Below are positions 23,991 through 30,119 of a stretch of 32,628 nt of DNA, one piece after another; position 1 is the stretch's first letter; each line of letters opens with the position of its first letter. The DNA is taken from positions 1-32,628 of the IMG/VR virus record IMGVR_UViG_3300048886_000288; one strand, written 5' to 3'. Below the pieces are notes generated by a model. That model searched no databases. It saw only the letters and a list, made by a program, of their open reading frames with translations, and was not told the origin of the DNA. This DNA comes from a virus (Duplodnaviria > Caudoviricetes). The position numbers and the translations under genes were made by a program.

Positions 23991-24013
23991 GTTTTCTCTG
24001 CCTTTTTATATGC

Positions 24014-24043
24014 GGGAATAATTCCCCGTTAAATTCTAGCATA
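24014..24043 (-). promoter_or_regulatory. Candidate late promoter (extended -10) with a downstream palindrome
   Basis: TGcTAGAAT on the - strand within TATGCTAGAATTT (24043-24031); GGGAAT-a-ATTCCC palindrome at 24014-24026; in the only gap before terS. Confidence 0.5.
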
Positions 24044-24073
24044 GCAGTCCGAGATTAGTGTTAAGGCCGTAAC

Positions 24074-24337
24074 TTAAACCCCATAGAGTTCCGCTAACAC
24101 ATCTGCCATATGCTGTAGCTCTGTTTTCTTTGTTATTCGCAGCATGGACTTATCGCCGTGTACGCCAGTTTCGCCGCGGTGACACGCCAAGCAGAGCGGG
24201 ATCGTCGCCATGTCGCCTATTCGGCTGCCTTGCTCGCGTATGTGATGAGCCTCGCTCGGACTGTCGCCGCAGGTGCAGCAAGGCAATGCTTTGACTCGCA
24301 ACATATGCTCTTTATTTGATGTGACGCCACGTTTCAT
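24074..24337 (-). CDS. Ref-like / DUF968-like HNH Zn-finger nuclease
   Basis: LPCCTCG...EAHHIR...TIPLCLACHRG..GVH. Confidence 0.75.
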   Translation of the reverse strand: MKRGVTSNKEHMLRVKALPCCTCGDSPSEAHHIREQGSRIGDMATIPLCLACHRGETGVHGDKSMLRITKKTELQHMADVLAELYGV

Positions 24338-24713
24338 GGTTTAACACCGCCTGCACTGTGGATTTGCTGATGCCGTACCGCTCGGCTAAGACGTTTTGCG
24401 TAACATCTTTTGCTTTTCGTATTGCGCGAACCTTTTTCTCATTCAGTTTGGCATTGCGTTTCGTCTCGCCTTTTGCCTTCGTGTAACCGTCCTTCAGTTT
24501 GTCAAGGTTGCGACGGACAGTAGATTCGGCACAGTCCATATCTTTCGCAATAAGGGCGCACGACACACCAGCGGCATGGCGTTTCGCCATATGACCAACT
24601 TCTTCGTCAGTGATGATTTTGCCCATTCTGCGATTCGGTATCGCATCGCGAGGTCGTATCGGTGACTTCCATCCCTTGTCTAATATTCGCAGGCATTCCT
24701 GTCCGAGGTTCAT
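24312..24713 (-). CDS. Tandem HTH DNA-binding protein
   Basis: GVSCALIAKDMDCAESTVRRNL and KGE...AKLNEKKVRAIR...LAERYGISKSTVQAVL...WRHI. Confidence 0.7.
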   Translation of the reverse strand: MNLGQECLRILDKGWKSPIRPRDAIPNRRMGKIITDEEVGHMAKRHAAGVSCALIAKDMDCAESTVRRNLDKLKDGYTKAKGETKRNAKLNEKKVRAIRKAKDVTQNVLAERYGISKSTVQAVLNHETWRHIK

Positions 24714-25027
24714 AACGTCCGCCCCTGTTTGTTTAAGCTACGCCACACCTCTATTACGGTGTTCATTCGGCTGCGTGTATTTTCCAGTAACTTGAAATCA
24801 GCTACCGCATTTTCCCATTCGGTGATTGCCTCGGCCACCTCGATGCTGCTGTCCGCTGTGGCGTTTCGTTCAGCAACGCTACCCGTCGCGCTCAAGAATT
24901 TCACGGCACGCACTAATTTGATTCTTTCCTTCTGTACGTCTTTCGCTGCGAACAGTAGCGCGTGGCTTCTGTCCGTCTTCGCCAGGTAGTCCAGCGCATC
25001 CTCTAATTTCTCTCTGTCTGGCAGCAT
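24710..25027 (-). CDS. Hypothetical helical phage protein
   Basis: 105 aa, GSVAERNATA...VIEVWRS; 4-nt overlap with the next gene. Confidence 0.65.
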   Translation of the reverse strand: MLPDREKLEDALDYLAKTDRSHALLFAAKDVQKERIKLVRAVKFLSATGSVAERNATADSSIEVAEAITEWENAVADFKLLENTRSRMNTVIEVWRSLNKQGRTL

Positions 25028-25202
25028 CTTTAGCGTCCTCGGGCGTGCTGTGTTTGCTCAAGAATTCGGCCGGTCTGCCTAGCTTCCACAGGCAGTATTT
25101 CGGAACGCCATCGCATATGACCTTCGCTATCTGATAGCCGCCTGAACGAATAGCATATTTGTTTTTCGTCCCGTCGCGGTTGCGAATTGCTGTCCATGTC
25201 AT
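24879..25202 (-). CDS. Hypothetical protein
   Basis: ATGA overlap with the upstream gene; YAIRSGGYQIAKV...YCLW; the last 149 nt overlap the next gene. Confidence 0.55.
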   Translation of the reverse strand: MTWTAIRNRDGTKNKYAIRSGGYQIAKVICDGVPKYCLWKLGRPAEFLSKHSTPEDAKDAARQREIRGCAGLPGEDGQKPRATVRSERRTEGKNQISACREILERDG

Positions 25203-25630
25203 CGCGACCGCTCGGCTATCACGCGAAGCCGTTTTGCTTGTTTCTCTAACTCGCCCGCCATGTCGGTAAATAGTTTTATCGAGTCTTCGCCAATCGTTAA
25301 AGTTTCGTCCGTCTGTTTCTGGTAATACGGCGCGACCATTAACGCATGACCTTCAATCATATAATCGACAAGTTCCGCAAACGTAAAATTCCACTGCACC
25401 CAATTTAGGTCGTTCAACTGCACCGACACTACAACAGTACCGATCTTATTTTCGTCTAAATATGCATACGTGTATTCAGCGTCAAACGCTACCTGGATCA
25501 ATTCGCCCATGTGGCGTAACAACTCTTTCTTCATCGCCGCTTCGAACTCTTTCGATGTGTCGCCGTATTCCCAGCCCGTTATATCAACGGACTCGCTATC
25601 CGGCGCTGCCTTCAGCCTTACTTTGCTCAT
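25199..25630 (-). CDS. Hypothetical protein
   Basis: 143-aa ORF with 4-nt overlaps on both sides. Confidence 0.6.
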   Translation of the reverse strand: MSKVRLKAAPDSESVDITGWEYGDTSKEFEAAMKKELLRHMGELIQVAFDAEYTYAYLDENKIGTVVVSVQLNDLNWVQWNFTFAELVDYMIEGHALMVAPYYQKQTDETLTIGEDSIKLFTDMAGELEKQAKRLRVIAERSR

Positions 25631-25950
25631 AATGCTTTCCTCATGGCCGCCAAGCCCCGCTCGGCGGTTTTCTTGTCACTGGTAGGCAGTTCAATAACTT
25701 TCGCCGTGCTGTGGCTTGCAGGGCGTTTCTGTCGCCTGAAATCGTCCTTGCCAAATATCCCAATCCATCCGTTATTCACTGCGTAATCGATGCACTCAAT
25801 TATGTCGAATCCGTCGTTGTGCAGCCTCTCGATTTTCTTCAGTGCCCGCTTTTGTGCAATCGGGCCGAACGCTTTGCGCTTGCACTCTGTTAAGCGGTAT
25901 TTTTTGTAATCCGCCCATGTTTCTTGGTCGAGGCAGTCAGGTAAGTCCAT
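25627..25950 (-). CDS. Stand-alone C-terminal domain of a phage replication-initiator-like protein
   Basis: LPDCLDQETWADYKKYR...AQKRALKKIERL...IDYAVNNGWIGIF resembles the 'PxW...W..R...L.KL...SI.NGW.G.F' C-terminal domain of phage replication proteins; no N-terminal HTH. Confidence 0.65.
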   Translation of the reverse strand: MDLPDCLDQETWADYKKYRLTECKRKAFGPIAQKRALKKIERLHNDGFDIIECIDYAVNNGWIGIFGKDDFRRQKRPASHSTAKVIELPTSDKKTAERGLAAMRKAL

Positions 25951-26289
25951 AGTATAAGTACCTGTTATATATGCTGACTGGTGGATTTAGAGCAAAGAGA
26001 ACCCATAGCCTCGCAGCTATTTGTTCTCTTATGCTGACCGGAGCCATTCGTCGCATTAGAGTCTGGTTTCTGATGGCTCCTGCCAAGACTTCTAGCCCAT
26101 ATCCGTCCCAGATACACCCTGGATAGGGGTTAATACGATGTGCGCGAACTGATGCCGTCCCTGTGGCTGATAACGCACAAAGTCGGGGTTTTGGCTTGAT
26201 GGGGCTTCGGTATGCTAGAATTTGCATGTCGGGGCGGCCATCAACCATATTCCCGATACCGGGGTCAGGCAATCGCCGCCCCGGTTCTC
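25951..26289 (-). ncRNA. Putative structured RNA of about 340 nt (long leader or replication pre-primer)
   Basis: Own promoter at 26295-26323; stems 26258-26264/26279-26285, 26196-26202/26238-26244, 26139-26144/26174-26179, 26040-26047/26073-26080, 25995-26002/26023-26030, the last capped by a GCGA tetraloop on the - strand. Confidence 0.55.
26211..26223 (+). promoter_or_regulatory. Candidate extended -10 promoter for an antisense RNA
   Basis: TGcTAGAAT at 26213-26221; the 13-mer TATGCTAGAATTT is identical to the candidate late promoter; no canonical -35. Confidence 0.45.
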
Positions 26290-26293
26290 TTTT
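26228..26293 (+). ncRNA. Putative antisense RNA of about 66 nt with two stem-loops and an intrinsic terminator
   Basis: Stem 26227-26234/26251-26258 needs G-U pairs available only on the + strand; GC-rich stem 26258-26285 followed by UCUCUUUU. Confidence 0.45.
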
Positions 26294-26294
26294 C

Positions 26295-26323
26295 AATTTA
26301 CGCCTAGTCGGGCGCATGTGCAA
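26295..26323 (-). promoter_or_regulatory. Sigma70-like promoter for the structured RNA
   Basis: TTGCAC (26323-26318), 17 nt, TAAATT (26300-26295). Confidence 0.6.
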
Positions 26324-26328
26324 CTAGG

Positions 26329-26847
26329 TTATGCCGCTTCACGGCGGCTACTTGTCGCAACAATAAATTCTGCCGGGAATTCACCCCATCTGAACGCCGC
26401 AAAACTGCTTGACCCGTCTGTATTGTTTTTTGCTATGCCAGGGACGTTGCCTGCGTCCATACCTACTAATTTACGATTGTAGCCAACCCGGAACACTCGC
26501 AAGTCGGCAAGCGTCCAACGGGCTAATCTTTCTTCTGCTTCATCGCAGAAGCCATAAAAAAAGTAATCGCCCCATCCTTCCAGTATTTTTGTCAATTCTG
26601 TTTTTGTCCCACTCGGACGCCCCGCCCGGATTGTGAACTCGTTAGCGTACTGCGGATTGCGTAAATAACTGTTTTTTCTAATCCGACAGCCAACACGTAC
26701 CGCATCGAGGCGCAGCACCATTAAATCGGTATTACGTTCAGCGTCTTCCTCGACGGGCGGTTCCGCTATCAGGTGCAGCCCTAGCGCCGCCTTTATTTCC
26801 GGCAGAAACCGGTCCGACCACCGCTTGTCGCGTTGCCAATTACTCAT
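26329..26847 (-). CDS. Putative PD-(D/E)XK-like restriction-endonuclease-fold protein
   Basis: EED...NTDLMVL...VGCRIR...EFTIR..RPSG..TEL.KI..GWGDYFFYGF; overlaps the MT-A70 gene by 8 nt. Confidence 0.5.
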   Translation of the reverse strand: MSNWQRDKRWSDRFLPEIKAALGLHLIAEPPVEEDAERNTDLMVLRLDAVRVGCRIRKNSYLRNPQYANEFTIRAGRPSGTKTELTKILEGWGDYFFYGFCDEAEERLARWTLADLRVFRVGYNRKLVGMDAGNVPGIAKNNTDGSSSFAAFRWGEFPAEFIVATSSRREAA

Positions 26848-27784
26848 TTATTTCGTTCCCCCACGGGGCAAACCCATCAATTTCGCGTCGTGCAAACATA
26901 TCAATACGCGGGCCGGTAGTTACGCGGCTTACCATGTCGTAAAAGGCTTCCGGTTTCTCGCTATGCTCCCCTCTGGGCGCGTTGAATACGGTTGAAAATG
27001 CCTTAGTGTCCACAAACTGCGGTGTGCCGATGCGGGCATATAGCGCAAATTCACCGTTGTACTGCGGTAGCCCTACCGGCTGGTAGCCACCTGGCTTGTG
27101 CCAGACAAACGTGCATACATAACGTGCGCCCCACGTTTCGAGGCACTGAAACGCAAGAGGTAAAAACTTTTGCGTAGTCCATGCAAACAAATGCGCATCT
27201 TCAGCAGCCGGTAATTTGATGGCTAATATCTCGTCTTCGCTCATTACCGGATAATCAAAAGCCACTTGGTTCGGACGCACTTCGCGCTCGATTTTTTCCA
27301 TCGGCCAGGGCGGGTCAATAACAATACATGAGTATGTGCCTTCCGGCGGGGCAACGTTCTGCTGTGTGCCGGTTAGCGCTTTCTGCGCCTTTACATATTG
27401 CCTAGCTTCGCGGACGGTCCAGCCTTCTGTGGCTGCTTGTTTAATTGCGTCCGCCCGGTCCGCCTCCGGCATTGCCGCGAGCTGTCTGCAAACGGTCCAC
27501 CCTACATTTTCGTTTCGATACGAAAGTTTGATTGCGTTAGCGACCCATTTATAATCCGCGAGCGCTTGGTATTCCGCTTCTGTTACGTCAATCGCTTGGG
27601 CGTAATTTTCCCCGTAATTCTTTTCGCCAATATTTAGCCAGTCACCAATCCACCACTGTACGGCCCGGTCCATGCGCTTGAGTGTTTCGCCCATTGCTAG
27701 CCACTCGTCAAACGTCGTGCCTTCGGCCATTTGCAAGCCGGTGAGTTTGAATTCAAAGCTATTCGATACTACCAGTTCACGCAC
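26840..27784 (-). CDS. MT-A70-family N6-adenine methyltransferase with an N-terminal LmbU/ParB-HTH-like domain
   Basis: IVIDPPW, HLFAWTT, FVWHK, REHSEKP-like GEHSEKPE, RIDMFAR; N-terminal FDEW..MG..L...VQWWIGDWL..GE..YGE.Y. Confidence 0.88.
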   Translation of the reverse strand: MRELVVSNSFEFKLTGLQMAEGTTFDEWLAMGETLKRMDRAVQWWIGDWLNIGEKNYGENYAQAIDVTEAEYQALADYKWVANAIKLSYRNENVGWTVCRQLAAMPEADRADAIKQAATEGWTVREARQYVKAQKALTGTQQNVAPPEGTYSCIVIDPPWPMEKIEREVRPNQVAFDYPVMSEDEILAIKLPAAEDAHLFAWTTQKFLPLAFQCLETWGARYVCTFVWHKPGGYQPVGLPQYNGEFALYARIGTPQFVDTKAFSTVFNAPRGEHSEKPEAFYDMVSRVTTGPRIDMFARREIDGFAPWGNEINE

Positions 27785-27863
27785 AGATTACCCCAAAATT
27801 AAAGCTGACTGCCGGGCACCGCGCCAGCTAAACGGCATTCCGGGGAGGAGGCCCCTGCCCTTG

Positions 27864-27904
27864 AATAAAAAGCCCGCAGCACCCCTCCGATGAGATGCGC
27901 GGGC
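27864..27904 (-). terminator. Intrinsic terminator downstream of the cro-like gene (possibly an attenuator)
   Basis: - strand GCCCGC GCAUCUC...GGGGUGC U GCGGGC followed by UUUUUAUU. Confidence 0.6.
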
Positions 27905-27963
27905 GAAAGCCACCGCTGACCATAAGCATCGCCCAGGATGCTCATAGCGAGGGGTAGCGGTGG

Positions 27964-28146
27964 TTAGTCGGCGGTTCTAACACGCTGTTCGAGTGCAACG
28001 ATGTTTGTGCCGAGAGTGTATTGCGGTTCGCGGTTCTCGCCGATTCGTAATCGGTGAATCTGTCGCCGCGTACACCCGCATTCCTCGGCTATTCCAGTGT
28101 CGGAATAGCCTTTCCGCCTTAAATACTCAAGTTTTCTAGTCCACAT
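27964..28146 (-). CDS. Cro-like HTH repressor (60 aa), probably leaderless
   Basis: LRRKGYSDTGIAEECGCTRRQIHRLRIGENREPQYTLG; ATG lies 6 nt after the -10 box with no RBS. Confidence 0.75.
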   Translation of the reverse strand: MWTRKLEYLRRKGYSDTGIAEECGCTRRQIHRLRIGENREPQYTLGTNIVALEQRVRTAD

Positions 28147-28152
28147 GCAGCA

Positions 28153-28181
28153 AGCATAGCGGGCCGTGCGCGGCCTGTCTA
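28153..28181 (-). promoter_or_regulatory. Leftward sigma70-like promoter with a palindromic operator in the spacer
   Basis: TAGACA (28181-28176), 17 nt, TATGCT (28158-28153); GGCCG-N4-CGGCC at 28162-28175. Confidence 0.65.
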
Positions 28182-28207
28182 CCTGAATATTTATTTGTAA
28201 ATAAAAC

Positions 28208-28236
28208 TTGCTATTTGTGCCGCGTGCGTCCATACT
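28208..28236 (+). promoter_or_regulatory. Rightward sigma70-like promoter
   Basis: TTGCTA (28208-28213), 17 nt, CATACT (28231-28236); AT-rich tract upstream; spacer holds a degenerate TGCCG-N4-CGTCC. Confidence 0.6.
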
Positions 28237-28268
28237 CTATATACGCACTACCAAAGAGGGGACAAGGG

Positions 28269-28550
28269 ATGAGCTTATCTAAATCACAACAAGCGAAAGT
28301 GCAGCGCGCATTGGCGCAACACGCGAGGCACCTCAACAGCTTTCACTGGACGCCACCAGTGAGCGCGGGACAGCGTCGTTACACTGAGCAGCAAAACAAC
28401 TGGTGTGTGTCATTCAAGCACGCCGGGGACACCTACACGTATGAATCCTGTGTCAGTTGTTCGTGCAAGAACTACTACTACCGCGGGGAATTTGCCGTTA
28501 ACGGCAAAAAGCGCACTGTTCGGGCTTTTCGGGCATTATTAGAAGGCTAA
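28269..28550 (+). CDS. Hypothetical early protein (93 aa)
   Basis: ATG at 28269 after a purine-rich RBS; first gene after the rightward promoter. Confidence 0.65.
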   Translation: MSLSKSQQAKVQRALAQHARHLNSFHWTPPVSAGQRRYTEQQNNWCVSFKHAGDTYTYESCVSCSCKNYYYRGEFAVNGKKRTVRAFRALLEG

Positions 28551-28580
28551 TGCCATTCTTTCCAAACTAGGGGAAACGAA

Positions 28581-28799
28581 ATGAATACACGCACTGAAAC
28601 AACCGTTAGGGTTGCGTGTCTGGGCTGCGGCCGAAAGGTCGCAATCGTCCCCGGGTCTCGGTCGACGAAGCGGCGTGTTAGGCATAAATGCCAGCACGGC
28701 CAATGGTGTGTTTTTGGGCACAGGCTGATGGGCAACGCAGGCATGAATCATTCGACATGCGAGAAGTGCCGAAGAGGAGGAACCGATGAAAGACTTTAA
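28581..28799 (+). CDS. Small Cys-rich (Zn-finger-like) hypothetical protein
   Basis: CLGC...HKCQHGQWC...CEKC; AGGGAA upstream. Confidence 0.5.
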   Translation: MNTRTETTVRVACLGCGRKVAIVPGSRSTKRRVRHKCQHGQWCVFGHRLMGNAGMNHSTCEKCRRGGTDERL

Positions 28800-28905
28800 C
28801 TACCTCGCGAACCAGCAGCCGAAGCGATCAGCATTCGACCGCTACCTTGTCGTCGAATGCCTGATGATTGCAGCGGTCGTCGCGTTTGCGTTTTTTCTAA
28901 TCTGA
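28786..28905 (+). CDS. Small membrane peptide (39 aa), not in the ORF track
   Basis: GAGGAGG RBS; MKDFNYLANQQPKRSAFDRYLVVECLMIAAVVAFAFFLI. Confidence 0.55.
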   Translation: MKDFNYLANQQPKRSAFDRYLVVECLMIAAVVAFAFFLI

Positions 28906-28918
28906 GGAGGAGACTGAA

Positions 28919-29221
28919 ATGAAGAAGCAAAATTTTATAGTACTGCACCGAATCACCGAAGCCGGAAGTTGGTATGTCGCGTCGTACTGCGAGGCGGACC
29001 AAGCAGAGACAGAGGTGGCTCGTTTGTCGGAAGAATTTCCCTCGACTGAAGTGAAAATGATGACGCTAGTCGGCAATAAATTTGAAGATGTGACCGGCGA
29101 GGGAGATAACTACGCAGATATTGAGCTGCCTGGATACAATTCAAAACAGCTCTTCGCCGACATCAACAAGATCACCGAAGATTACATCGCAATCAAAAAA
29201 TTGACGGGCGAATTAAAGTGA
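28919..29221 (+). CDS. Hypothetical protein
   Basis: GAGGAGG RBS, 100-aa ORF. Confidence 0.65.
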   Translation: MKKQNFIVLHRITEAGSWYVASYCEADQAETEVARLSEEFPSTEVKMMTLVGNKFEDVTGEGDNYADIELPGYNSKQLFADINKITEDYIAIKKLTGELK

Positions 29222-29430
29222 GTCGTCAAGAGTTCGACCGGCAGGGTGAAAATGCACCCAAAATGCTAGAACTAACCGAGAAAAAGGTAACCATGATGCG
29301 GGCTTTACGAGTCATTCGCGACGTTAGCAATCGCGCAAGTGACGAAGGCGTTAGGGTCGCTAGATTGCGTGGGGCGATAAAAGCAATTTCTACAGAAGCT
29401 GAAAAAGCACTAGCTAAGGTGGAACAATGA
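29218..29430 (+). CDS. Hypothetical protein
   Basis: GTGA and ATGA overlaps on both sides. Confidence 0.55.
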   Translation: MSRQEFDRQGENAPKMLELTEKKVTMMRALRVIRDVSNRASDEGVRVARLRGAIKAISTEAEKALAKVEQ

Positions 29431-30119
29431 GCGGCGCATCGCGAGACGCTTGGGACGACTACCAGGAAGAATTAACGAACGATCCAGGTTACAGCCAATG
29501 GCTCGATGACTTGGATTCCAAAACATACCAACAACAGGAGGACGAAATGTCATTAATATCTAAAACCGGATCAAGCGACGATTTTAAGCTGGTCCCAGAA
29601 GGAACTCATCTGGCTAGGTGTTATTTAATGGTAGATATCGGGCTGCAAGAAACGCCCTACGGCGACAAGGAGAAGGTCGTTTTGGGTTGGGAAATTCCCG
29701 AGCAGCTCACGGACGACGGGCGTCCGCTGATTATTTATTCGACTTATACCAATTCGATGCACGAAAAGTCGAATCTTCGCCGGGACATTGAGAACTGGCG
29801 CGGAAAGAAGTTGACCGACGACGAATCTCGGGCGTTCGACCTTCGTAACGTTCTCGGGCATCCATGTCAGCTTTCAATCGTTCACAACGAAAACAACAGC
29901 AGAACTTACGCCAACGTCCAGGCCGTCACTGGCATTCCCAAAGGTCTACCGGTCGCCGAAGCCGTCAACGATGTCGTCTGCTTCGACCTCGACGCCGGGG
30001 ACGACGTTTCTACTCTGCCTGATTGGCTACAAAGAAAAGTGTCAGATCGAAAATCAGCAGAGACAGCCGAGTTTGTCGAGGCTGTCGCAGAATCATTCGA
30101 CGACGACATACCGTTCTAA
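29427..30119 (+). CDS. Phage single-stranded DNA-binding-like protein (probable second start at 29547)
   Basis: VPEGTHLARCY..VDIG.Q...SMHEKSNLR..IE.WRG...YANV; acidic C-terminal DDDIPF typical of SSB tails; GGAGG precedes ATG 29547. Confidence 0.75.
   Translation: MSGASRDAWDDYQEELTNDPGYSQWLDDLDSKTYQQQEDEMSLISKTGSSDDFKLVPEGTHLARCYLMVDIGLQETPYGDKEKVVLGWEIPEQLTDDGRPLIIYSTYTNSMHEKSNLRRDIENWRGKKLTDDESRAFDLRNVLGHPCQLSIVHNENNSRTYANVQAVTGIPKGLPVAEAVNDVVCFDLDAGDDVSTLPDWLQRKVSDRKSAETAEFVEAVAESFDDDIPF

Follow-up and report, generated by a model that had tools for sequence, protein, structure and literature searches.

A structured non-coding element in the initiator slot of an uncultured lambdoid phage: a candidate RNA origin module beside a stand-alone O C-terminal domain

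Introduction

The rep leaders of pT181 and pIP501 contain attenuators that are driven by antisense RNA, and P1 c4 and P4 CI are immunity RNAs. Replication origins based on RNA are described for ColE1 (PMC5043065) and for the prophages of cluster A mycobacteriophages (PMC7157519). A partnership between such an RNA and the C-terminal domain (CTD) of a protein initiator, if true, would be a new class. We found no description in the literature of the element reported here; the tables of PMC10690425, with 10,000 candidate viral RNAs, may hold the two families of related elements that we designate as A and B.

The window, by which we mean the whole stretch of DNA analysed (32,628 nucleotides), is a whole 32.6-kb linear virus record with an estimated completeness of 92%. 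The phage has a P22-like portal, terminase and lysis genes, and its early region is divergent. On the - strand, the genes are arranged in the order of a small repressor-like gene (27964-28233), an MT-A70 methylase gene, a gene for a 172-aa unknown protein, a 384-nt non-coding gap, a 107-aa gene, small genes and terminase. An initial annotation, made from the sequence alone, interpreted the gap as a long structured RNA accompanied by a short antisense RNA in a ColE1-like layout.

The locus resembles ColE1 RNA II/RNA I, as outlined in PMC5043065, in its predicted long non-coding transcript with its own promoter and alternative 5' folds and, in the window phage, in a candidate for a short RNA antisense to its 5' end. 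It differs in that it has no sequence or Rfam match, in the length of the predicted RNA (340 vs 550 nt in ColE1, PMC5043065), in a 5' domain ending in a terminator-like stem with a U-run, in an antisense promoter that is not conserved among 7 relatives, and in its position in a phage beside an O CTD gene. With the O/P module of lambda, it shares the slot after cro and a homologous CTD (PMC5043065), and a P-like loader follows in some relatives. Unlike lambda, the window has a non-coding element in place of the N-terminal DNA-binding domain and the iteron array (there is one 12-nt two-copy repeat), and no P-like gene was detected in it. Cluster A mycobacteriophages likewise have an initiator-less region that is exchanged for a rep gene among close relatives; however, their origins maintain plasmid prophages beside parABS (PMC7157519), whereas the phages studied here are lambdoid and carry an O CTD, and the gap in the window has no INPHARED match. 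Our best explanation, to which we assign a probability of about 0.5, is that the gap is an RNA origin module gated by an attenuator, which stands in for the DNA-binding half of the O initiator.

Results and Discussion

A stand-alone CTD gene downstream of the gap

The initial annotation had noted the absence of a recognisable polymerase, primase, helicase or complete initiator. Neither these three enzymes nor a loader were found among the 47 window ORFs scanned for families. As for an initiator, the gene downstream of the gap (25627..25950, - strand) does encode part of one: its 107-aa product matches positions 218-296 of the 346 in PHROG 678 (E 2e-8) and, by tblastn, O-like proteins, which identifies it as a stand-alone CTD of a lambda-O-like replication initiator. 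A stop codon lies 12 codons upstream of its ATG, and the N-terminal DNA-binding domain is not in the same protein. No full-length initiator was found among the 47 ORFs of this record (estimated 92% complete), in which the CTD gene adjoins the gap.

Judged by sequence comparison, this gene belongs to a family and is not a fragment, because 311 representatives match its product, the best ten phmmer matches are all 106-118 aa long, 59 of the 149 scored matches stand alone, and the three best Atlas clusters consist of virus-only proteins of 107-116 aa. The structure model of the protein has a pLDDT of 90. Fold searches with it gave no clear structural match; the DnaD domain 2i5u (Z 4.1, rmsd 2.8, 60 residues) ranked fifth, within background.

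The CTD was matched in 12 of 401 Burkholderiales genomes, always within frames of 257-447 aa, and a pattern scan of the genome collection returned 9 stretches and no stand-alone CTD gene. In the genome search, the CTD profile had no match in any of 34 terminase relatives; these use other replication modules. Protein-seeded viral scans yielded one chance locus, no locus and five chance matches, respectively. The inspected matches in cultured phages are full-length O proteins, except in Pseudomonas phage Solano (L132:1263-2282), in which the O-like gene is annotated as a CTD of 108 aa preceded by a 690-nt stretch, reflecting either a miscall or a split; phage Hali has a single 342-aa gene at the corresponding place. 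The O-like gene of L011 (53-656) is split by a frameshift relative to that of L003, which is either an assembly error or real. In L053, L055, L069, L174 and L209, stand-alone CTD genes are packed right behind other genes and have no adjacent gap.

A frame of 128 codons (ORF128; 25937..26323, - strand) runs open across the gap and overlaps the CTD start, and its length would suit the N-terminal half of O. One could accordingly regard the gap as a gene, or as a decayed or frameshifted front half of O, and we find this scarcely credible. The initial annotation had named protein-like conservation of this frame as evidence against an RNA, and nothing of the kind was seen. The frame has no homologue and no family match, and thus no O N-terminal domain was recognised there; its codon score of -0.05 is shadow-like, given scores of -0.21 to 0.08 in 10 shadow frames and of 0.10-0.25 in 10 of 12 accepted genes (the other two are near 0). 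Related elements likewise contain open frames of 39-149 codons. The frequency of stand-alone CTDs among the best matches also argues against a lost front half. No direct DNA relatives of the gap were found in INPHARED or PLSDB; the sole ones found are two near-identical metagenome contigs, in which the gap is identical and the body of the CTD gene differs, in one of them, at 8 sites. Since the three contigs agree, a sequencing frameshift is excluded. We judge that the frame is not a gene.

Structure and signals of the gap element

On either strand, the folding of the gap surpasses that of 60 dinucleotide-shuffled sequences (sense z -3.4, antisense z -3.8), so folding does not reveal the strand. 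Windows of 120 nt within the coding gene upstream also reach z -3.6 to -3.9, and folding alone therefore proves little. On the - strand, this strong folding (z to -3.9) lies at 26440-26640, inside the 172-aa gene. The proposal that the replication slot holds a long, folded element without coding function is supported; in relatives, initiators occupy this slot, as described below.

All motif positions given in the initial annotation proved exact when rechecked in the sequence. The stems that it described are present, with 6-9 bp at 26285/26258, 26256/26183, 26146/26173, 26081/26040 and 26030/25995, and the U-GCGA-G loop was confirmed on the - strand as UAGC-U-GCGA-G-GCUA. The last two stems, with this loop, belong to the 3' structured region (25948..26175, - strand), which ends in ACTATG and contains a 12-nt direct repeat (copies at 26041-26030 and 25981-25970). 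This repeat is the best local one, and no iteron or tandem array occurs in 25500-26500. No DnaA box was found near the element; its U-run is weak, and its G skew is slight (0.10 for the 3' half). A search of the gap against Rfam gave no match at the gathering threshold or at E<=10.

The predicted sense promoter (26295..26323, - strand) consists of TTGCAC (26323-26318), a 17-nt spacer and TAAATT (26300-26295), with a start near 26289. It matches the consensus at only 7 of 12 positions, and a promoter/terminator scanner, which across 24000-29500 reported 6 sites resembling promoters and 5 resembling terminators, none of them inside the gap, listed neither it nor the proposed antisense promoter and antisense terminator. 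Relatives support it, as a promoter of the same TTG[AC]-17-like type lies at the same distance from the 5' switch in relatives (G442, G443, G458, G459, G463 and G447/G456), and the -35 hexamer of G456 is identical to that of the window. The -35 box is enclosed by an inverted repeat (CCTAGT...ACTAGG, 26303-26328), which could serve as an operator or mark where the operon upstream ends.

A predicted two-state switch in the 5' domain

In minimum-energy folds, the first hairpin (26258..26285, - strand) contains a strand, a (26283-26275), to which a second strand, a' (26230..26238, - strand), is a perfect 9-bp complement. A long stem formed by b (26256-26238) and b' (26202-26183) and followed by the weak U-run CUUUGUG constitutes a predicted terminator-like state (26176..26256, - strand). 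The b:b' state and a:a' pairing are predicted to be mutually exclusive: the latter is the predicted lowest-energy fold at transcript lengths of 60-90 nt (-33 to -37 kcal/mol), while b:b' is preferred from 100 nt (at 120 nt, -46.3 vs -40.4 kcal/mol for a:a'). Modelled in this way, the 5' domain of the window looks like a sense-strand attenuator in its anatomy and not like the primer-folding switch of ColE1. Exclusive folds of a:a' versus b:b' plus U-run upstream of a replication gene recall the attenuators of pT181 and pIP501, from which the locus differs in its non-conserved antisense promoter and in that the switch is followed not by a full rep gene but by another 230-350 nt of structured RNA.

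In relatives, the layout is a promoter, a hairpin with strand a, then b, a', b' and a U-run, with the cores of the elements downstream. The equivalent stem terminates in 4-7 U, and the a and a' sequences vary among phages yet remain 7-14-bp complements. The 5' layout of the window is common to these related elements, although the detector that recovered it was relaxed after the window had been seen: the strict form gave three matches and missed the window, which was found once the -35 rule was relaxed. The relaxed form gave 6 matches in 386 promoter-like sites (6 of 32 records, including the window), all within 3.1 kb of a CTD gene, and its match in the window is exactly the promoter of the initial annotation. 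Controls gave one match in shuffled DNA and one in 77 long-frame loci. The latter (L064:845-1010) comprises a promoter and an a/b/a'/b' switch with a U-run directly before a full-length O-like initiator gene, and, as far as sequence tells, is probably an undescribed attenuator leader of phage initiators. Because this switch runs straight into a full-length initiator, the switch by itself would be a rep leader.

These observations bring in the possibility that the whole gap is only a regulatory leader, an attenuator of the downstream operon acting with or without antisense RNA, and that the origin lies elsewhere. The attenuator anatomy of the 5' domain and the example of L064 are consistent with it, as are the ending of the window element at the CTD start codon and the open frames of 2-8 codons at the 3' end of the element in several relatives. 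It leaves unexplained, however, the 230-350 further, covarying bases and the exchange with an initiator gene, and the same element precedes different genes or is inverted relative to the CTD gene. We consider a leader alone rather unlikely, but the rival to be taken most seriously.

Two candidate antisense promoters on the + strand, an extended -10 (TG-c-TAGAAT, 26213-26221) and TTGCAT-18-CATATT (26222-26251), are aimed at the first hairpin and the U-rich tract at 26286-26296; shuffles contain 0.23 such candidates on average against these two. An antisense -10 of at least 4/6 was found in none of 7 relatives and, in a separate comparison, in one of 9. Antisense control as a shared mechanism is thus not upheld, and of the promoter pair whose conservation had been proposed as a check, the sense member recurs in relatives and the antisense member does not. 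The antisense RNA had also been drawn as two stem-loops, but its minimum-energy fold is one branched stem. A ColE1-like pair, in which an antisense RNA of 40-65 nt exerts copy control by acting on primer folding, would account for the two facing promoter candidates and for a long RNA with its own promoter. It fits less well with the relatives, which lack the antisense -10 and in which the 5' domain ends in a sense-strand U-run that points to termination; it has no Rfam or plasmid match, and a phage-encoded initiator domain is present. We therefore regard such a pair as unlikely.

Families of related elements

Pattern scans of IMG/VR for stand-alone CTD loci returned 3 of 80 and 4 of 88 loci (a fifth short match, L201, arose by chance). 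A third scan, covering half the collection, returned 31 of 120 loci with a short upstream frame, of which 7 were set aside as edge-cut or frameshifted long forms. The final set comprises 32 records including the window; many are fragments and some are closely related. Comparable elements consist of a promoter, a 5' switch with two states that ends in a U-run, and 230-350 further structured bases. A program tally found one in 14 of the 32 records (7 with family A, 5 with family B, G458 and the window). G445 shows the 5' layout by eye only, and bare gaps, 290-470 nt long, occur in G038, G039 and G462. In the other 14 records, there is neither an element nor an adjacent gap, including 4 of the 12 that are at least 90% complete (G444, G453, G466 and G467). 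A motif common to G038 and G039 scored above 100 shuffles and has a z of 3.6-3.9, which we regard as weak.

Family A is defined by a core of 230-360 nt and occurs in 7 of the 32 records and in L247. Among 256 control loci, the core was found at these records only, and at none of about 160 long-frame O loci, many of which are redundant and have flanks of 0.3-2 kb. In an alignment of six members, both partners vary at 14 of 32 predicted pairs and 88% of cells pair, with the structure taken from these six rows themselves; none of 500 shuffles attains 14 of 32, and slid controls reach at most 7 pairs. G451 is also recovered by the family A model (E 2e-10), as is G443, though weakly. Family B is present in 5 of the 32 records. 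Rfam gave no match on 8 stretches with family A members or G445, nor on 6 other loci, the 14 related loci scanned. Family A had no match in INPHARED (searched with G461) or PLSDB (with G463), and no plasmid or cultured phage in these collections matches the elements.

The relationship of the window to these families is less direct. Its gap has no nhmmer match to the family A core (best model score 1.6 bits, E 1.1). Its 3' part forms a colinear local alignment of about 160 nt with G447 of family B (z 6.4 and 8.6) and scores lower with G449 (z 2.5 and 3.0), as assessed with 30 shuffles in 14 comparisons; the alignment with family B takes in the last hairpin and the words after it. A family B profile built from four near-identical rows misses the window, with no match at E<=2 in 1.75 Mb, and in a four-row fold of the window with family B, both partners vary at only 2 of 42 pairs, and many pairs are disrupted in the row of the window. 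On balance, we lean towards homology between the 3' region of the window and family B. The covariation that the initial annotation proposed to look for is seen in family A; the joint fold of the window with family B is poor. A 14-mer common to the window and G443 was not taken as homology, since another 14-mer matched by chance.

The structure could instead act as single-stranded DNA, that is, as a priming or helicase-loading signal that is exposed by transcription. Both strands fold equally well, the element lies in the initiator slot, and perfect DnaA boxes are located just beyond its 3' end in G440, L247 and family B (G447, G449, G450 and G456), all of which would suit such a signal. A dedicated promoter and a terminator-like 5' switch, the G-U pairs kept in family A helices and a GNRA-type loop on the transcribed strand only speak for RNA, and we hold a DNA signal to be distinctly unlikely. 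A phage RNA that acts in trans and has nothing to do with opening the origin, such as an immunity RNA of the P1 c4 or P4 CI type, is in our view very improbable. A hairpin and a downstream complement that vary between phages do resemble the specificity of c4 and CI, and the orientation relative to the CTD gene varies; however, neither the window nor 14 related loci match Rfam (including c4), no antirepressor was found among the window ORFs scanned, and the element swaps with an initiator gene.

Exchange with a full-length initiator gene

Two small-terminase relatives (L003 and L010) carry, at the place of the gap, a 227-229-aa initiator with HTH and CTD, together with a P-like loader, and the gap therefore occupies the normal place of the DNA-binding half of O. 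Within one clade, the contents of the slot directly upstream of the same 125-135-aa gene differ between phages: G455 has a 248-aa full-length initiator (CTD match E 1e-9) of the kind labelled DUF1376, G440 has a family A element, and G447, G449, G450 and G456 have a family B element. The same slot thus interchangeably holds an element or a complete initiator gene in related phages, which supports the replication role that had been proposed for the locus. In G038, a complete temperate phage with an integrase, cro is followed by a 369-nt gap, the CTD and a P-like loader, and no other initiator was found among the 33 early ORFs scanned.

The initial annotation offered a translational leader of the downstream gene as the alternative. 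This is weakened by elements of the homologous type that are inverted relative to the CTD gene (G440, G458, G460 and the other family B records) or lie 1-3 kb upstream of it (G442 and G459). In G455 (L376), a full-length initiator and a stand-alone CTD occur in one record on opposite strands, so the CTD need not partner an RNA and may have another job.

A model for the proposed origin module

In the attenuator-gated RNA origin that we favour, transcription would start near 26289 and produce an RNA of about 340 nt, the first 110 nt of which would act as a switch. Pairing of a with a' would come first and let the polymerase read on, whereas b:b' with the U-run would stop it, and the switch would thereby set the frequency of long-RNA production. 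We infer that the 3' part may remain hybridised to the template as an R-loop or a primer, and that the RNA would substitute for the missing DNA-binding half of O in opening or priming the replication origin. The displaced strand would be passed to the host helicase, possibly with the help of the stand-alone O CTD. An antisense RNA from 26216-26251 is plausible as the trigger of the switch in the window phage only.

A broader proposal, which we put forward tentatively and with less confidence than the module itself, is a widespread and undescribed class of phage replicons whose origin recognition passed from the DNA-binding half of lambda O to a structured RNA. In such replicons, the attenuator-gated transcript would form an R-loop, the freed CTD would load the host helicase, and several unrelated RNA families would interchange with the protein initiator. 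If true, this would explain how replication starts in many uncultured lambdoid phages that have no recognisable initiator, and would show, in nature, one job being exchanged between an RNA and a protein domain among close relatives. It would also yield new compact origins whose specificity is encoded in sequence, as a and a' differ per phage. Even if the elements had no role at the origin, families A and B would still be structured elements that recur among phages and are missing from Rfam 15.

Variation around the elements

The distance between switch and core varies among the relatives. G459 carries a 170-nt insert there, and in L247 an extra stem module, which resembles one of the core, lies upstream of the core and was apparently duplicated between switch and core. 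At their 3' ends, elements of several records bear CTATG, as identified by eye (G461, G463, G440, G442, G458, G462, L247 and the window, 25948-25953). In several of these, the ATG opens a frame of just 2-8 codons, and some of them overlap the CTD start.
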